From: Myxococcota bacterium
GTDB taxonomy: Bacteria > Myxococcota > XYA12-FULL-58-9 > JALHOP01
Assembly: GCA_041288095.1 (NCBI GenBank)
Contig: JBGGMJ010000067.1
Span: 1-43,480 of the forward strand
Length of the DNA: 43,480 nt
Direction of reading: 5' to 3'
In this document: in pieces, positions 1,008 through 10,837 of the stretch
How the letters are laid out: every line of letters begins with the position of its first letter
How positions within the stretch are numbered: position 1 is the stretch's first letter
Made by a program: the position numbers and the translations under genes
Notes under the pieces: generated by a model
What the model was told of the DNA's origin: nothing
Seen by the model: only the letters and a program-made list of their open reading frames with translations
Databases searched by the model: none

Positions 1008-3248
1008 ATGTTCGAGACCGATAAGCCCACCGACAATTCCTCCGAGCCCAGTCCCATGGGCAGTTTTTCGCAAGCGCTCCCCGAGCGCTTTGCCTCTCAG
1101 ATCTCCGTCGTGGACCGCCCAGCGGAGCACATCTGGGCCACGCCCGCCGATAAAGTGCGCACCATGGTCGATTCCTTCCCCGTACAGCCTGTGGCTCTGC
1201 CAAAGGCGCCTGTTGCTTTGGCCGGCATCCCGGCGACAGCCCTCATCGAAAACGCGGGCGATGTCGCGGCTTTAGTCGGCGAGCGCCTGACGCTCCAAGC
1301 CTTCGCGCAGCTCTGCGGCACCCTCGGCGGCTACCCCTTCGTAAAGGTCGTCGTCGACCGCCCGACCCGCACGGTCCACTTCCTCAACAACGCCAAGTAC
1401 CCCTTCCACGCCGACTACATCGGCGAGCGCCTCCTGGGTCTGTCGCCCGGTGAGATTGACGCCAACATCGACCAGTACAACGAGTCGTTCTATCTGACGC
1501 GCGACCGCCGCTTCTTCTTGGGCATCCTCGCCCTGCACAAGCGCCGCGACAAGAACACCGACCGCCGCTTCTTCACGCTCGAGACCGTCGAAGTCGACAC
1601 CATGGACGGTCCGATGTTGCAGTCGTTCTTCGACATCGTGAAGGAGAACCTGGATCCGAGCTCACCCGTGCTCGTGAAGCCGGCGAACCACCTCCAGGAA
1701 TCGATCGTCACGACGATTCCGCGCGAGCAGATGCCGCGCGTCTTCTCGCACGAGCTCTTCGCGACCTCGCGCTTCATCGCCTTGAACGCCGGCGAGTCTC
1801 GCGGTCGCCTTCGTGCTTTCCGCAGCGAAGTCGAGTACCGGTCACAAGCGCACACCATCGAGTGGTACGACATCCTCGTGATGCACCGCGTGCCCGACGA
1901 CATCCCGCGCGTCTCGGGCATCATCAACGCGCACCACACCACTCCGCTATCGCACACAAACGTGCTCGCCTCCGGTTGGGGAATCCCCAACTGCGTGCAG
2001 CTCGGCATCTTCGACCGCATCGAAAAAGACCGCTTGGACGGACACTGGGTCCGCTTCCAGGTGGAGATGAACGCCACCGAGCCGGTGCTCGAGCCGGCGG
2101 AGAAGCCCGCCGATCTCGCCAAGCGGCCGATCTGGAGCGTGCAGAGCATCAAGCTCGAGGCGCCAGAGACCGCGAACATCCCCATCGTGGCGCTCGACCG
2201 CCTGCGCATGAGCGACCGCTACAAGTACGGCACCAAGGCCGCGAACTTGGGCGAGCTCAAGTACGTCCTCGAGAACGGCTCGGAGCGCATGCTCGGCTTC
2301 TATCGCGTACGCCGCCCACCGCGCGCGAACCTGCTGCCCTATCTCGCGCGCTTCCTGAACGTCCCGGCGAACTTCGCCATGGAAGGCCGTGGCGCCACCC
2401 TGGGTCGCGCCGCCTGGGAATTCCTGCGTGAGAACTTCCAGGTGCCGCGCGGCATCGCTATCCCCTTCGCGGTGCAGCAAGAGTTCCTCGAGTCGTCGGC
2501 GCCGATTCAGCAAGCCATCGGTAAGCTGAAGATGGCGCTCGAGCTCAAGGCTCGCGAGATCGATCCGCTGTGCGTCTCGTTGCAGCAGATGATCCGCCAG
2601 GCGCGCATGCCGGAGCACCTGCGCAACGCCATCGACGATCAGATCGCCGAGCACCTCTCGGGCGTCTCCTCGTTCGTCGTGCGCTCGTCGTCGAACGCCG
2701 AGGACCTGCAGGGCTTCTCCGCCGCCGGCATCTACGAGTCGATCAACAAGGCGCGCACCGCCGACGACGTCTTCCAGTCGATCAAAGAGGTCTGGGCGTC
2801 ACTGCTCTCGCCTCGCAGCGTCCGTCTGCGCAACGACGTCGGCATCTCGCTCGACGACTGCTGGATGGGCGTCATCGTCCAAGAGAAGGTGCCTTCGGGC
2901 ATGGGCGGCGTGCTGGTCACGACCAACCCGATGTCGCGCGACGACTTCCGCAACGTCTACGTCAACGTCTCGCCGAAGAGCGTCGAGAACATCGTCGACG
3001 GCTCCGAGCTGCCGATGCAGTACCTCTACAACGTCGTCGAGGGCGGTGGTCGCACCCTGTCGATCGGCGACGCCAAGGAGGACCTCTCCGACGAGCGCAA
3101 GGTCGTCCTGCAAAAGCTGGGTCTCGCGGGCCGCTTGCTGCAAGCACACTTCTCGCCGGACTACACCTTCGCGCAGCCCGTCGATATCGAGTGGCTGGCC
3201 AACGACGAAGGCATCTCGATTCTGCAACTAAGGCCGTACGCCAAGTAA
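1008..3248 (+). CDS. PEP-utilizer/dikinase family phosphotransferase with permuted domain order (unknown N-domain, phospho-His swivel domain, C-terminal PPDK_N ATP-grasp domain)
   Basis: TTPLSHTNVLASGWGIPN resembles the TSHAAIxAR..GIP phospho-His motif (His about residue 316). ATP-binding domain motifs: YGTKAANLGEL, VPRGIAIP, VVRSSSNAEDLQGFSAAGIYES, IKEVWASL, MGVIVQE, GVLVTTNP, PVDIEW, ILQLRP. Confidence 0.85.
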   Translation: MFETDKPTDNSSEPSPMGSFSQALPERFASQISVVDRPAEHIWATPADKVRTMVDSFPVQPVALPKAPVALAGIPATALIENAGDVAALVGERLTLQAFAQLCGTLGGYPFVKVVVDRPTRTVHFLNNAKYPFHADYIGERLLGLSPGEIDANIDQYNESFYLTRDRRFFLGILALHKRRDKNTDRRFFTLETVEVDTMDGPMLQSFFDIVKENLDPSSPVLVKPANHLQESIVTTIPREQMPRVFSHELFATSRFIALNAGESRGRLRAFRSEVEYRSQAHTIEWYDILVMHRVPDDIPRVSGIINAHHTTPLSHTNVLASGWGIPNCVQLGIFDRIEKDRLDGHWVRFQVEMNATEPVLEPAEKPADLAKRPIWSVQSIKLEAPETANIPIVALDRLRMSDRYKYGTKAANLGELKYVLENGSERMLGFYRVRRPPRANLLPYLARFLNVPANFAMEGRGATLGRAAWEFLRENFQVPRGIAIPFAVQQEFLESSAPIQQAIGKLKMALELKAREIDPLCVSLQQMIRQARMPEHLRNAIDDQIAEHLSGVSSFVVRSSSNAEDLQGFSAAGIYESINKARTADDVFQSIKEVWASLLSPRSVRLRNDVGISLDDCWMGVIVQEKVPSGMGGVLVTTNPMSRDDFRNVYVNVSPKSVENIVDGSELPMQYLYNVVEGGGRTLSIGDAKEDLSDERKVVLQKLGLAGRLLQAHFSPDYTFAQPVDIEWLANDEGISILQLRPYAK

Positions 3249-3261
3249 CGGGAGCTTCGTG

Positions 3262-4467
3262 ATGTCGACGAAGCGCCTCGTCTTTCTCTACTACGCCTTC
3301 CAGTTCTTCTTCTCACTGCTGCTGTGGGTGCCGATCTTCTACGCCTACCAGCAACAGCTCGGGCTCTCCGACCCCGAGATCTTCAAGATCCAGAGCATCT
3401 ACTACATCGCGTTCTGCGTGCTCGAGATCCCGACGGGGATGATGGCGGACGCGATTGGCCGGCGACGCTCGATGCGCTTCGGCGCCGCGGCGCTGGTGGG
3501 CGCGAACCTCCTGGTCGTCGGCATCCCCACGTTCATCGGCCCGTACATGGGCTTCGTGGTGCACTGGCTCTTGATTGCGCTATCGCGGTCACTCATCTCG
3601 GGCGCCTCGAGCGCCTATTTGTACGATGCGCTGCAAGACCGCGGCGACAAGGAGATCTACAAGCAGGCCGAGGGCAACGCGCGCGCCTACGGGTTGGTGG
3701 GCAAGGTTGCCTGCTGGGCTGGTATCGGCTTCCTCATGCAGTGGCACTTCACCCTGCCCTATTGGCTCACTGCCTTCTCCGCCCTGTGCGCTTTCGCGGT
3801 CGCCATGATGTTGCCGCAAGACTCGGGAGCGAAGCGCTCCTCACCGCTGCTGCTTTTGCCGCGCGCCTTCGCCATCGTCCGCGGCTCGCCGAAGCTCGCG
3901 CTGCTCATGGTGCAAGGCATCGGTTTGTTCACGCTCGTTCGCCTCGTACAGGTGAACCTGTTCCAACCGATCCTCGGCGCCAAGGGCTTCGGCGTCGAGA
4001 CCTTCGGCATCATCCTCGCCGGCTCGTCGATCTTCGAAGCGGTCGGCTCGGCCCGACCCGCATGGATGCGCCGCTTCGTCGGTGACTTCCACGCGGTGAC
4101 GCTGCTCACAGTGGTAATGGCGGCGGCCATGTCCGTGATGGCGGTCGGTAACGCCTGGATAGCGGTCGCTGCCTTGGCGGTCTTCTCGTTCATCGCCGGC
4201 ATCTCGTTCCCGATTCAACGGCAGGTCTTCAACGACGCCATTCCGGAGCCGTCGCTGCGCGCGACCCTGCTGTCGATGGAGTCGATCGTCGACCGTTCAG
4301 TGTGCGCTTGGGCGGCTCTGCAGCTCGGCGACTACCTGGCGGCAGGCCGTCTCAATCACTTCCTGCACGGGGCGGCGGTCGTCGCGGCCATCGTCACGCT
4401 CGCGGTCGCAGTCGCTGTCGGTGCCATGAAGTCAGGCCGACAGGATGTCAGGCAACCGGCCGTCTGA
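3262..4467 (+). CDS. MFS transporter (probable exporter)
   Basis: About 12 hydrophobic segments; MFS motif A-like EIPTGMMADAIGRRRSM; SGASSAYLYD; RATLLSMES. GGGAG RBS 13 nt after the kinase stop region. Confidence 0.9.
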   Translation: MSTKRLVFLYYAFQFFFSLLLWVPIFYAYQQQLGLSDPEIFKIQSIYYIAFCVLEIPTGMMADAIGRRRSMRFGAAALVGANLLVVGIPTFIGPYMGFVVHWLLIALSRSLISGASSAYLYDALQDRGDKEIYKQAEGNARAYGLVGKVACWAGIGFLMQWHFTLPYWLTAFSALCAFAVAMMLPQDSGAKRSSPLLLLPRAFAIVRGSPKLALLMVQGIGLFTLVRLVQVNLFQPILGAKGFGVETFGIILAGSSIFEAVGSARPAWMRRFVGDFHAVTLLTVVMAAAMSVMAVGNAWIAVAALAVFSFIAGISFPIQRQVFNDAIPEPSLRATLLSMESIVDRSVCAWAALQLGDYLAAGRLNHFLHGAAVVAAIVTLAVAVAVGAMKSGRQDVRQPAV

Positions 4468-4478
4468 CGCGCCGAGAA
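4452..4478 (+). promoter_or_regulatory. sigma28/FliA-like promoter GCAA-N15-GCCGAGAA
   Basis: Matches the TAAA-N15-GCCGATAA architecture and ends 8 nt before ATG 4487. The same motif occurs at 5471 and 26384. Confidence 0.5.
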
Positions 4479-4486
4479 CCGACTCA

Positions 4487-5449
4487 ATGCCCATCACGCC
4501 GGTCCGTTTCGGCGAGCGCCTAGCGCTCGCGAGGGACGAGTCTCCCTTGGGCACCGGTGTGTCCCGCGAGGCGCCGGCGCCGCTCGACAACGAGGCGAGA
4601 GCACGCCGTGTCGTGCGAGCCGTCGCTAATCCGATGCCGACTCTGGAGCAGGTGTCCGAGCTCGACGCCGGGAGCATCGTCCGCCGCAGCATCCCCAACG
4701 GCCGGTTGTTCGTGGACGGGGTGCGGCCCTTCGACATCACGCAAGGTCTCACCGGCGACTGCTGGCTCGTGGCGTCGCTCATCGCCATCGCCGCGACTCG
4801 CCCCGAGCTCATCGAGAACGCGGTCACCGACAACGAGGACGGCACCTTCACCGTACGTCTCTACGAGGCAGGCGCGGCCCGCGACGTCACGGTCAACGGC
4901 GAGCTCTACATGCACGCAGCCATTCGCAAGCCGGTTTACATGCGCTCGCGCAACGCCACGGAGCTGTGGGGTCCGATCATCGAGAAGGCCTACGCGGGGC
5001 TCCACGACGACGGTTACCAAGGCGTGCACAGCGGTTGGCCGGCGGACGCGCTACGAACCTTGACCAACCTCGACAGCGACCTCCTCGCCCACGCGTCGTC
5101 GAGCGACGATGCTCTCTATGCGACCATCGAGCAGGCCCTGCGTGACCGGCGGCCGACGGTTGCCGATATCGGCATAGACGATGTCGCGGCGGCCGAAGCA
5201 GCCGGCTTGCTGCCCCTCCACGCGTACGCGGTGCTGGGCACCCAGATCGAGGATGGCCAGCGCTATCTCGTGTTGCGCAACACCACTGACTCGCCCGAGT
5301 TCGAGACGTCCGCGTACATCGCGGCGCTGCCGCCGTTCGTCCAGCGTGAGGACCATGGCTCGCCGTTCGGGCTCGACGGGGCCTTTCGCATGCGTATCGA
5401 CGACTACCGGCGCTGGTTCCGGCAGACGACCGTCCTCAAAGCAGGCTGA
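4487..5449 (+). CDS. calpain-like cysteine protease (peptidase C2 catalytic domain), no signal peptide
   Basis: DITQGLTGDCWLVAS (catalytic Cys), ELWGPIIEKAYA, GWPADALRTLT, HAYAVLG (His), YLVLRN (Asn), DGAFRM. Low-complexity N-terminal extension. Confidence 0.85.
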   Translation: MPITPVRFGERLALARDESPLGTGVSREAPAPLDNEARARRVVRAVANPMPTLEQVSELDAGSIVRRSIPNGRLFVDGVRPFDITQGLTGDCWLVASLIAIAATRPELIENAVTDNEDGTFTVRLYEAGAARDVTVNGELYMHAAIRKPVYMRSRNATELWGPIIEKAYAGLHDDGYQGVHSGWPADALRTLTNLDSDLLAHASSSDDALYATIEQALRDRRPTVADIGIDDVAAAEAAGLLPLHAYAVLGTQIEDGQRYLVLRNTTDSPEFETSAYIAALPPFVQREDHGSPFGLDGAFRMRIDDYRRWFRQTTVLKAG

Positions 5450-8345: not shown

Positions 8346-10837
8346 TGGTAGCTCCCTTGCTCGCAGCTCGCGAGCACGGTGGTGTCGTTCGAGCGGCCAC
8401 CGGTGAAGTAGAACAAGCCGCCCACGTAGACAGTGCCGGCGCGATAGCGAGCCGCCGAGAGCACGATGCCGCTGTCGCCCGCGCCCCAGTTGACGATCGG
8501 CGGATCGTCGGTGTCGCAGTTGGTGCCGGAAGGACAGACATCGGCCGTGAGACCACGATCTTGGTAGCCGCCGGAGCCGTCGCGGCCGCCGAGCGAGAAG
8601 AGCACGTTGTTCACCAGCGCGCTCGACGAGCCGTGACGCCGCTGGCTGGGCGTGCCGGCGTACGTGGTCCAAGCGCTGAGGGTGCCATCATCGCCGACGC
8701 TCGCGACCTCGATGTTCGAGAGCACGGTGCCACCGTCGAGGCCTTGCGCCACCGCGAGGTACGTTGTCGCGAGGCCCGCGACGATCGGGGCGCTGGCGGC
8801 GTCGATGACCGCGCCGATGTGCTCGCCGCGTGCGACGCTGAGATCGCCGCATGCGGAAAACGCTCCGATGCTCGCGACGCCCGCGGTGCTCGTAATCTCG
8901 GCGAGCTCGCAGTCGGTGACCGCGGCTTCGGGGGCGCCGGTGACGCCACCGAGCACGTAGACGAAGGTGCGACCGCCGGTGGCTTGCGCCGCGACGGCGA
9001 CGCCGTTCGCTCTGCCGGCGGCGAGATCGGGCTGATCGGCCCACACGCCCAGTGCACCGGAAGGTAGCGGTTCCTCCGCGCCGACCACGGCGGTGCCGTC
9101 ATCGGTGAAGCTCGTGCCGGTGGGCGCGGCAATACGGCGCTCGGTGCCCGCGAGAGAGTTGGGCAACGGCGAGCGATAGACGCGATAGCCGGTGGCGCCG
9201 GGCACAGCCGCCCAGCTGATCGCCACGCGACGCTCGGTGCCGATGACGATGGTCTCGGCGTCCGAGGGCAAGGTCTCGCCGCCTGGGTTGTCGCCGGTGC
9301 CGTCCATCACGGCGGACACGCGATATGAATAGGTGCCGGGGAGCAAGGCGCTGGCGGCGAATTCCTCGGCTGCGGGCGCGGCAATCACCGGGACGGTGTC
9401 CGTTCCCAGGACGCGCGCGCGCACCGTGTCGGCGAGCAATGCACCGGCTCCGTCATGACCGCCGCTGAGGAAGACGTATTGTCCATTGCCGAAAGCGCTC
9501 GCCTCGGCGGTCGCGCGCGGAAGGCGCGTCGTCAGCGTGCGCCAACTACCGAGCTGTCCGAAGCGCGACAGCGCCGCCACCTCGACGGTGTCGAGCGCGG
9601 TGGTGTTGCGACCACCGATTGCATAGACGAAGCGATTGCCCGAGTCGTCGCGCGCGCTGATGGCCGCGTGCGCGTAGCGGCCGGTACCGAGCGCCGGCAA
9701 GGCCGTGGTGCTCTGCGCGAGATTGCCCGCCGGATTCGTGACCGCGAAAGCGGAGAAGTCGGAGAACGAGCCGTCATCCGTGTGCTCGAAGCGCACCACG
9801 TAGCTGCCGGAGCTCATCGTCGAGCTCGGAGCCATGCATGTCGCCTGCAGCGCCGAGCCAACCACGAGGGTCCCACAGAGGTAGCAGTTGGGAGCCGTGC
9901 AAGCGGCGCCCGAGGCCTGGTCGGCACGCAACAACATGACGCGGGCCGTGGTCTTGAAGCTCTCACCGTCGATTGTGAGCTCGACGTCGTCTTGAGTGTC
10001 GGCCTGCTCCGGACTCACCGCGGTGATCTTTGGCGGCGGGTCGGCAAGCACCTCGAAGGCGTCGACGATGATGCCTTCACCGCCGTCCGGGTTCACCACC
10101 CTGATGTCATAGGGTCCGCCAACGACGATGCCGGCGCCGCGCGGCTCGGTCGAGGCCGGCACCACGGCGGTCATGACCGACGCATCGGCGAAGCCGTGAA
10201 CGCTGGAGTGCTCGATCGTGAAAGCCTCGCGGATGAGCGGCACCTCGGTGACGCCGAGGCCGTCGCCATCGGCGTCGACCAGCAGGAACACTTGCGGCAC
10301 CGGCAGCAAGCCCCTGCCGGCACCGTTGTCGGCGCAGATTTCGATCGTGGTCCGGCCGCCAATCCATCCATAGGCGGGGTCGACGCTATTGCAGAGATCG
10401 ATGCGCAGACACGTGGCGCTCACCTCGAGGCCCGCCGGCAGCGTCACTTGCTCACCGGTCGGCGACTCCACGGTCACGTCGCAGGTGCCGACGGCCAGTC
10501 CCTGCGGTACCGCGGCGGTCAGCGAGTCGCTATCGAAGTGATATGCCACCTCACCGAGCTCCGTCGTGACGCCACCACAAACGAGCGTCACGTGTGCGTG
10601 CTCGAGCCTCGGCGTGTCGGTCAGCAAGTCGCGCGGTACGGGTGCGAGACCAGTTCCCGAGATGCGCACGACACCGGCGGCGGTGTTGCAGAATATCGGG
10701 TCGCCGTTGCCCACCGTGTTCACCGCGTTGACGGCGGTGATGGTGAGAGGCGGACCTTTTTGATCGACGCTATTGATCTTGCAGCTCACCGCCATGCCGG
10801 CGATGAGCAAGCAACAACGGGCCATGGAGGAACGCAT
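8342..10837 (-). CDS. large lipoprotein with Ig-like IPT/TIG domains and Kelch-like beta-propeller repeats
   Basis: Lipobox MAVSC. IPT-like segments (PPKITAVSPE..LTIDGESF; DVTVESPTG; DIRVVNPDG). Kelch repeats (RYAHAA..VYAIGG; YVFLSGG; VYVLGG; LFSLGG; FYFTGG). Several Cys pairs. Confidence 0.75.
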   Translation of the reverse strand: MRSSMARCCLLIAGMAVSCKINSVDQKGPPLTITAVNAVNTVGNGDPIFCNTAAGVVRISGTGLAPVPRDLLTDTPRLEHAHVTLVCGGVTTELGEVAYHFDSDSLTAAVPQGLAVGTCDVTVESPTGEQVTLPAGLEVSATCLRIDLCNSVDPAYGWIGGRTTIEICADNGAGRGLLPVPQVFLLVDADGDGLGVTEVPLIREAFTIEHSSVHGFADASVMTAVVPASTEPRGAGIVVGGPYDIRVVNPDGGEGIIVDAFEVLADPPPKITAVSPEQADTQDDVELTIDGESFKTTARVMLLRADQASGAACTAPNCYLCGTLVVGSALQATCMAPSSTMSSGSYVVRFEHTDDGSFSDFSAFAVTNPAGNLAQSTTALPALGTGRYAHAAISARDDSGNRFVYAIGGRNTTALDTVEVAALSRFGQLGSWRTLTTRLPRATAEASAFGNGQYVFLSGGHDGAGALLADTVRARVLGTDTVPVIAAPAAEEFAASALLPGTYSYRVSAVMDGTGDNPGGETLPSDAETIVIGTERRVAISWAAVPGATGYRVYRSPLPNSLAGTERRIAAPTGTSFTDDGTAVVGAEEPLPSGALGVWADQPDLAAGRANGVAVAAQATGGRTFVYVLGGVTGAPEAAVTDCELAEITSTAGVASIGAFSACGDLSVARGEHIGAVIDAASAPIVAGLATTYLAVAQGLDGGTVLSNIEVASVGDDGTLSAWTTYAGTPSQRRHGSSSALVNNVLFSLGGRDGSGGYQDRGLTADVCPSGTNCDTDDPPIVNWGAGDSGIVLSAARYRAGTVYVGGLFYFTGGRSNDTTVLASCEQGSYQ

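Follow-up and report, generated by a model that had tools for sequence, protein, structure and literature searches.

A stretch of 43,480 nucleotides (the window; positions 1 to 43,480 of contig JBGGMJ010000067.1, assembly GCA_041288095.1, from a Myxococcota bacterium) carries on its forward strand a gene for a putative phosphohistidine dikinase, followed at once by a gene for a transporter of the major facilitator superfamily (MFS). The window is ordinary chromosomal DNA of high GC content (63–73%). An earlier reading of this DNA (the original prediction) had proposed that the domains of the dikinase stand in the order known from plant glucan water dikinases (GWD). The features that are described below are the following, in coordinates of the window:

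1008..3248, + strand: dikinase gene, 746 residues (open reading frame; PPDK_N match; AlphaFold pLDDT 87; orthologs at 47–96% identity)
1008..1247, + strand: residues 1–80, disordered, genus-specific N-terminal extension (pLDDT < 50; orthologs outside the genus begin at about residue 75–90)
1248..1760, + strand: residues 81–251, compact alpha/beta N-domain, presumed to bind the acceptor (pLDDT ~90–98)
1761..2114, + strand: residues 252–369, phosphohistidine swivel domain (VIA-align and Foldseek)
1953..1955, + strand: codon of His316, the presumed phospho-carrier, in the motif TPLSH (invariant in 50 of 50 aligned sequences)
2205..3245, + strand: residues 400–746, ATP-grasp nucleotide-binding domain, PPDK_N (Pfam E 1.9e-34; PDB matches)
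2268..2435, + strand: residues 421–476, helical insert in the N-lobe of the ATP-grasp (ortholog alignment; helices 426–476 of the model)
3250..3254, + strand: GGGAG, likely ribosome-binding site in the intergenic gap (reading of the sequence)
3259..4467, + strand: MFS transporter gene, 402 residues, conserved partner of the dikinase (MFS_1 E 5.4e-13; orthologous MFS within 150 nucleotides in 85 of 98 loci)

The dikinase gene closes with a TAA stop codon, and a gap of 10 nucleotides with the GGGAG motif leads to the GTG/ATG start of the MFS gene. This short gap and the motif ahead of the start suggest that the two genes are co-transcribed. A sigma-70 scan upstream of the dikinase gene found no promoter or consensus, and an Rfam search of positions 450–1100 returned DUF805b alone, below its threshold (17.2 bits against 35.6). 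The noncoding stretch at about 830–1000, 5' of the dikinase gene, is made up of blocks nearly identical in four genomes of the genus, with variable sequence between them.

PPDK_N (PF01326) is the sole Pfam family found in the 746-residue protein, and its match covers residues 461–744 (E 1.9e-34, 119.9 bits against a cut-off of 27). The AlphaFold2 model of the full-length protein, calculated from 50 homologues, has a predicted local distance difference test score (pLDDT) of 87 and a predicted template-modelling score of 0.84. It is formed by disordered residues 1–80, an alpha/beta domain (81–251), a beta-rich domain (252–369), a linker and the ATP-grasp (about 400–746). His316 is located at the start of a helix within the beta-rich domain and belongs to the swivel motif TPLSHTNVLASGWGIPN. 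A second AlphaFold model, restricted to residues 81–400 (pLDDT 91), was searched against solved structures. Residues 252–369 were aligned by VIA-align to the swivel of rifampin phosphotransferase (RPH; 5hv1, residues 753–867; Z 11.7, root-mean-square deviation 2.4, 99 aligned positions), to the extra C-domain of Bacillus pyruvate kinase (Z 11.0), to Enzyme I (Z 10.8) and to the carrier domain of PPDK (Z 8.4–8.6), and Foldseek agrees on the swivel fold. The Pfam family PEP-utilizers is matched by the swivel below threshold (residues 298–334, E 0.04–0.13, 12.4–13.9 bits against 23.1). The ATP-grasp matches the ATP domains of RPH and phosphoenolpyruvate (PEP) synthase in the PDB by both sequence and fold, and it is through the ATP-grasp that the full-length model matches these two enzymes in Foldseek. 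No Pfam match to the PEP/pyruvate-binding TIM barrel (PEP-utilizers_C) was found, and the protein terminates with the ATP-grasp at residue 746.

The original prediction had placed a phosphohistidine motif at about H316, ahead of a PPDK_N domain that ends the protein, with no barrel behind it and with the overall order substrate, histidine, ATP. This layout is borne out: the motif, the fold matches and the Pfam assignment (461–744) agree, His316 lies within a domain that resembles four swivel domains with Z of 8.6–11.7, and the Pfam and structure matches give the order presumed acceptor domain, swivel, ATP-grasp.

Conservation was counted over 50 aligned sequences with 23–68% identity. In the swivel domain G266, L314, H316 and P327 are invariant. 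In the ATP-grasp the invariant residues are G408, K410, P486, R559, S561, E565, D566, A573 and G574, as well as V595, S598, G634, V635, E728 and Q740. Among them, K410, R559, S561, E565, D566, E728 and Q740 are presumably the counterparts of the nucleotide and metal ligands of PPDK. Since the catalytic residues are invariant across all 50 sequences, the enzyme looks catalytically whole. It has no signal-like hydrophobic segment (the maximum 19-residue hydropathy is 1.57) and is therefore taken to be cytoplasmic.

Relative to the canonical PPDK_N domain, the ATP-grasp contains an insert of about 55 residues (421–476) between GTKAANLGEL (408–417) and VPRGIAIP (479–486). An insertion of about 50 residues had been predicted at this place; it is real and is kept throughout the ortholog group, Streptomyces included. 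The phmmer alignment put the canonical glycine-lysine motif at 'MEGRGATLG' inside the insert. This placement was rejected because G408 and K410 are the invariant residues.

The N-terminal part of the protein had been described as a single domain of about 250 residues that belongs to no recognised family. Its size has to be revised, as it consists of the disordered extension of 80 residues and a folded domain of about 170 residues (81–251); the lack of a Pfam family covering the latter stands. The extension is coding, as four genomes of the genus show: all have the ATG, indels (12–18 nucleotides just behind the ATG at 1008) are in frame, and the differences at codon positions 1, 2 and 3 number 33, 25 and 68. 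Judged from this pattern, the ATG at 1008 is the real start in this genus.

In the folded N-domain H134 and D197 are invariant and Y162, R167 and E192 nearly so. Between the window protein and the Streptomyces enzymes, identity is 44–47% in the N-domain, 43–47% in the swivel and 48–54% in the ATP-grasp. The N-domain is thus as conserved as the swivel and nearly as conserved as the ATP-grasp, which argues for a similar acceptor in both. Structure searches, which the original prediction had proposed for residues 85–300, were made with residues 81–400 and recovered the swivel fold. The Foldseek and VIA-align matches of residues 81–400 fall almost all on the swivel, and a sequence profile search of the PDB with the same residues found nothing. 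RPH is aligned to this model over 99–119 positions, in the swivel only, and its rifampin-binding domain was not matched to the N-domain. The sole structural neighbours of the N-domain are other bacterial proteins of the same superfamily.

The 402-residue protein encoded downstream matches MFS_1 (PF07690) over residues 9–330 (E 5.4e-13, 49 bits against a cut-off of 33.4). The match spans profile positions 2–325 of 347 and hence both six-helix halves, and MFS_1 is matched by all eight MFS orthologs examined. Where the original prediction had counted 12 transmembrane helices, a rough scan of hydropathy picked out 11 hydrophobic windows that overlap one another. No sequence relative of this protein was found in the PDB at E up to 1.

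The linkage of the two genes was followed through 103 loci with an ortholog of the dikinase. Besides the window itself, 22 of these come from genomes or plasmids and 80 from metagenomes. A locus was counted as evaluable (98 of 103) if it extends at least 300 nucleotides downstream of the dikinase gene or if an MFS gene was detected. An orthologous MFS gene (37–100% identity) lies on the same strand at most 150 nucleotides downstream in 85 of the 98, with a median gap of 33 nucleotides. Counted per cluster of dikinases, the linkage holds for 64 of 69 clusters at 90% identity and for 48 of 52 at 75%. The linked loci span genomes of Myxococcota/Bdellovibrionota type, of Eremiobacterota type and of Streptomyces. 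In an all-against-all clustering of 911 neighbouring open reading frames from 100 loci the MFS family occurs at 75 loci and every other family at 10 or fewer. The linkage of dikinase and MFS is conserved far beyond chance; its absence was one of the outcomes that the original prediction had named in advance as refuting it. Maximum-likelihood trees were built for 15 dikinases and for the 15 MFS proteins paired with them. Both show the same four groups and agree in how the Eremiobacterota-type group branches internally; branch lengths in the MFS tree are two to three times those in the dikinase tree.

The dikinase and its orthologs form a tight group, with lengths of about 670 residues. The best 120 matches of a word-indexed search all contain PF01326 only, are 646–781 residues long and have 60–96% identity; the sources named among them are Bdellovibrionota, Oligoflexia or 'Deltaproteobacteria'. 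Organism labels are given here as the source databases name them, and some of these name homologues phosphoenolpyruvate synthase. Among species-representative genomes, orthologs are present in metagenome-assembled genomes labelled Myxococcota or Bdellovibrionales (90–96%), in Bacteriovoracaceae and Oligoflexia (58–64%) and in Vulcanimicrobiota, Eremiobacterota or Xenobia (61–63%). The Streptomyces orthologs have 47–50% identity over 88–90% of the length and are widely distributed in that genus (avermitilis, venezuelae, noursei, lydicus, kasugaensis, rimosus and many others). An ortholog was found in only 5 of 40 relatives of the window's genome (three of the same genus, plus G004 and G015), and many others of the 40 carry paralogues of the same architecture with 25–32% identity. 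An exhaustive search returned 1717 clusters at E up to 1e-10; among the matches listed, most are 600–720 residues long and cover the N-terminal half and the ATP-grasp. A literature search whose coverage excludes subscription journals returned the papers on tal, HpeHI and GWD that are cited below and no description of this dikinase family.

Each of the three Streptomyces records has two further genes ahead of the dikinase and MFS genes, the order being a divergent PAS/HTH regulator, an ATP-grasp gene, the dikinase and the MFS. The ATP-grasp protein has 454 residues, the stop codon of its gene overlaps the start of the dikinase gene, and it is a clear homologue of the alanine-anticapsin ligase BacD, the L-amino-acid ligase of bacilysin (E 2.6e-50). 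In two proteins named as Streptomyces proteins, P0124 (1113 residues) and P0143 (828 residues), ligase and dikinase are fused; the N-terminal part of P0124 matches BacD with E 5.9e-28. Five metagenome loci of the 48–49% identity class also have the ligase, once downstream of the MFS gene, so that a ligase is present in 8 of the 103 loci overall. Of the two roles that the original prediction had offered, inactivation with efflux and a phosphorylation step in biosynthesis, a ligase that adjoins the dikinase or is fused to it speaks rather for the second, together with export, or for a reaction on what the ligase makes.

By gene set, the closest characterised parallel is probably the tal cluster for phosphoramidon (talopeptin) in Streptomyces mozunensis MK-23. 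According to the part of the paper available to us, this cluster encodes the MFS protein TalB, the dipeptide ligase TalD, which is of the ATP-grasp type, and TalE, a kinase resembling PEP synthase and PPDK that forms an N-P bond by phosphorylating the N-terminal amine of Leu-Trp (PMC6482885). PPDK-like genes in the clusters for phaseolotoxin and agrocin 84 are mentioned there as well. The same gene set is found in the Streptomyces cassette, with the ligase gene before the kinase gene in both. The tal cluster differs in having the rhamnosyltransferase TalC and a MerR regulator, neither of which is in the Streptomyces cassette, and its authors note that the dipeptide may also derive from protein breakdown (PMC6482885, in the same part). 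The window shares the MFS gene with tal, but no ligase was found in its locus or, with the two queries used, in its genome.

Bacilysin offers a second parallel. There bacE encodes an MFS transporter that is paired with the ligase, which is the same logic as in the Streptomyces cassette. The bacilysin system has no dikinase step.

The reading that we prefer, tentatively and with slightly less than an even chance of being right, is that the pair consists of a phosphohistidine dikinase and a dedicated MFS transporter which make and export a phosphorylated metabolite of amino-acid or dipeptide type. What has been observed is the architecture, the full set of catalytic residues, the conserved pairing of the two genes and, in Streptomyces, a ligase as neighbour or fusion partner. 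The chemistry of the dikinase, what the N-domain does, which kind of acceptor is used and in which direction the transporter works we infer as follows. ATP would be bound by the ATP-grasp, and its beta-phosphate would be taken by His316 on the swivel, presumably via pyrophosphoryl-His with release of the gamma-phosphate, by analogy with PEP synthase, GWD, RPH and PpsAB/HpeHI. The swivel would then carry the phosphate to the N-domain, where it would be passed to a small acceptor of amino-acid or dipeptide type, and the MFS protein would export the product. The two genes would thus form a cassette of minimal size that makes a product and exports it. In Streptomyces the added BacD-type ligase, fused to the dikinase or coupled to it in translation, would supply a dedicated dipeptide, and the path would be to ligate, phosphorylate and export.

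Several observations weigh against this reading. The direction of transport is ambiguous, as the weak matches of the MFS proteins, all below cut-off, point both ways: on the efflux side to Tet(40), TetA(P) and HP1165, and on the symporter side to metabolite/H+ symporters (5 of 8 orthologs) and galactoside permease (2 of 8; best 4.3e-8), with further weak matches to RbtT/DalT/CsbX (5 of 8) and LacY_symp (1 of 8). None of the subfamily models comes near its curated cut-off in the eight orthologs, and no subfamily is assignable. An adjacent MFS gene is absent at 13 of the 98 evaluable loci. These form four groups: a Xenobia-type clade of eight (L020, L021, L023, L024, L029, L050, L051, L100); L039; L052, where an MFS gene with 35% identity lies 2.6 kb away; and L058/L059/L062. 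A hairpin resembling a terminator is located at 3267–3282, just within the MFS gene; it is at chance level, because the scan gave 5 terminator-like sites with 2.6 ± 1.6 expected. The N-domain would be the acceptor site on two grounds, its position and its invariant residues. The likeness to the tal cluster is one between gene sets as the available part of PMC6482885 describes them. A ligase was found at none of the Gram-negative-type loci. No ATP-grasp ligase was found in the window's genome either, with two queries (the N-terminal part of P0124 and an 803-residue PGM1-like/WD40 protein), in a genome that is 90% complete and without a positive control. The acceptor in most lineages would therefore be a common, ready-made metabolite.

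It is possible, though unlikely, that the pair serves detoxification: the dikinase would phosphorylate and so inactivate an incoming or self-made toxic small molecule and the MFS protein would pump it out, which in Streptomyces would amount to self-protection from the dipeptide made by the ligase. RPH, a small-molecule dikinase of the same superfamily, does inactivate an antibiotic (PDB matches; PMC12167813, in the part available), and among solved structures (5hv1, 5fbs) it is the best match to the ATP-grasp (Foldseek E 4e-17) as well as to the swivel (Z 11.7). In most lineages no biosynthetic gene accompanies the pair, the cassette is distributed over several phyla, and the weak matches of the MFS proteins to tetracycline-type efflux pumps suit such a role. 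The architecture is, however, unlike that of RPH, in which the order is ATP-grasp, rifampin-binding domain and swivel, so that the window protein is permuted with respect to it; with NF041857, the model for RPH, it reaches 90.9 bits where the cut-off is 999, and the match is limited to residues 459–744 of the ATP-grasp. The trees of dikinase and MFS show deep congruent groups, not recent spread. The fusion of ligase and dikinase suits consecutive steps on one molecule, although a self-resistance enzyme would also act on the ligase product.

Uptake and trapping is, in our judgement, just as improbable. Here the MFS protein would import a nutrient or signal and the dikinase would phosphorylate it inside the cell, in a high-affinity scavenging system like HpeHI, CreHI and PpsAB, two-component dikinases that open catabolic pathways. 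HpeHI is described as a scavenging small-molecule dikinase (PMC12167813). In these systems, as far as the available part of the source describes them, a subunit with the substrate and swivel domains followed by an ATP-grasp subunit gives the same domain order as in the window protein, with a His-swivel mechanism (PMC12167813). The ATP-grasp of HpeI (PDB 9goj) matches that of the window protein by sequence and fold. The differences are that these enzymes consist of two polypeptides and the window enzyme of a single chain, and that their substrate domain is large and of the rifampin-binding type of RPH (HpeH has 71 kDa) as compared with an alpha/beta domain of 170 residues (PMC12167813, in the same part). 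The weak matches of the MFS proteins to symporters and permeases, listed above, would fit import, but all lie far under the curated cut-offs. A HAD-type hydrolase adjoins the pair in five loci, yet no catabolic gene travels with the pair in the neighbour clustering of 100 loci, and the ligase neighbour and the fusions in Streptomyces point to synthesis.

A functional analogue of the plant GWD, whose acceptor would be a glycan polymer, for example glycogen or a polysaccharide of the cell envelope, is very unlikely. In GWD and the related PWD a substrate part is followed by the phosphohistidine domain and by a C-terminal PPDK_N nucleotide-binding domain. In the window protein, too, the phosphohistidine domain precedes the C-terminal nucleotide-binding domain. 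The available part of a 2026 review reports that the phosphohistidine domain of GWD has an essential His and that no high-resolution structure of GWD exists (PMC12892837). Sub-threshold matches to the Pfam family GWD1_pHisD (PF22973, cut-off 27 bits) were obtained for 9 of 50 family members (best E 1.4e-4), compared with 4 of 50 for PEP-utilizers, and the best named ESM Atlas cluster for residues 81–370 is GWD1_pHisD (0.93, 196 shared features), a score that is no more than a lead. Distant members with beta-sandwich modules (CarboxypepD_reg, fn3, Calx-beta, LTD) might be seen in the same light. On the other hand, the window protein itself has no GWD1_pHisD match, and sub-threshold matches occur in 5 of 14 ordinary control genomes as well. 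The evidence for kinship with plant GWD beyond domain order is thus weak. Unlike GWD and PWD, the window protein has neither CBM45 nor CBM20 and is half their size or less; Pfam found no carbohydrate-binding module in it or in its 50 relatives. Its partners, the MFS protein and the amino-acid ligase, fit a small molecule. Finally, some sources name homologues phosphoenolpyruvate synthase, and the ATP-grasp resembles that of this enzyme. The name was rejected and has a practically negligible chance of being correct, since the protein lacks the barrel, its domains are permuted and the equivalog models for that enzyme score 73–100 bits against cut-offs of 598–976 over residues 458–744 only (53–100 bits against 598–1700 when the NCBIfam models of RPH and PigC/RedH are included, again in the PPDK_N part only).

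The wider superfamily contains proteins of other build. A second, larger paralogue is encoded in the window's genome on contig C161 (about 9541–10515, – strand; open frame of about 1006 residues; loci L002 and L031). It has the histidine ahead of the ATP-grasp and a sub-threshold match to GWD1_pHisD (18.4 bits). Distant members with the GWD order (P0154, 3227 residues; P0265, 836 residues; ESM Atlas clusters) carry fused extra modules, namely fn3, Calx-beta, CarboxypepD_reg, lamin-tail (LTD), EF-hand or Por_Secre_tail, which suggests surface or exported forms.

Several further genes were observed beside the pair. A gene for an H+-translocating pyrophosphatase (H_PPase, E 1e-181) lies downstream of the dikinase gene in 10 of the 100 clustered loci (L041, L043, L044, L049, L052, L061, L062, L068, L104 and L110, possibly non-independent). 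At most of these loci it comes right behind the MFS gene and has the same orientation; exceptions are L068 and L052, with other DNA in between, and L062, which lacks an MFS gene. This neighbourhood could be lineage synteny or a hint that pyrophosphate is a product. The HAD-family hydrolase mentioned above, of about 210 residues, was found at L019, L053, L057, L103 and L105, where the dikinases are 49–62% identical to that of the window, and it may be a phosphatase partner. In the MFS-less Xenobia-type clade a protein of 803 residues, with an ATP-grasp (IQCH-like), a PGM1_C domain and a WD40 propeller, is encoded 1.5–3.5 kb downstream of the dikinase on the opposite strand (L021, L023, L024, L029, L050, L051, L100). 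It was considered as an independent ligase link and set aside, because all seven loci represent one clade with dikinases more than 90% identical.

In the window itself, a HIT-family gene (44–505, + strand; Pfam HIT, E 2.1e-26) lies directly 5' of the dikinase gene. Its synteny is kept in two further genomes of the genus (L003/L014 and L004/L016), and no linkage was found outside the genus. HIT/Hint enzymes hydrolyse P-N bonds in nucleoside phosphoramidates, and the gene would be a curious neighbour if the product of the dikinase were a phosphoramidate. On the other side, a gene for a calpain-type cysteine protease (4445–5449, + strand; Peptidase_C2, E 9.9e-30) begins 23 nucleotides before the MFS gene ends and, given this overlap, may be on the same transcript; it adjoins the pair within the genus only. 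Other genes of the window include those for Obg, L21, a class I tRNA synthetase, a TonB receptor and a trehalose-phosphate synthase/phosphatase.

Small-molecule dikinases form a class of enzymes that is now emerging, with members acting in rifampin resistance, in the catabolism of phenol and lignin monomers and in the formation of the N-P bond of phosphoramidon. The family described here is a variant of this known kind of enzyme, with a strikingly constant transporter partner. It represents a third arrangement of the same modules, otherwise known only from plant starch kinases. In dozens of lineages it comes with a transporter of its own, and it is present in well-studied Streptomyces species too. 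A bolder proposal, speculative and rather doubtful at present, is that the pair represents a biosynthetic cassette of minimal size, ancient and widely distributed, by which bacteria from Streptomyces to predatory Gram-negative soil bacteria secrete an unnoticed phosphorylated amino-acid or dipeptide metabolite, for example an N-phosphoryl inhibitor of metalloproteases or a signal, and that the family would be the bacterial stock of the catalytic half of the plant starch dikinases. Identification of the product would provide a tractable bacterial model for the swivel mechanism of GWD type. It would also bring to light a phospho-metabolite common among bacteria and the job of an unassigned MFS subfamily.

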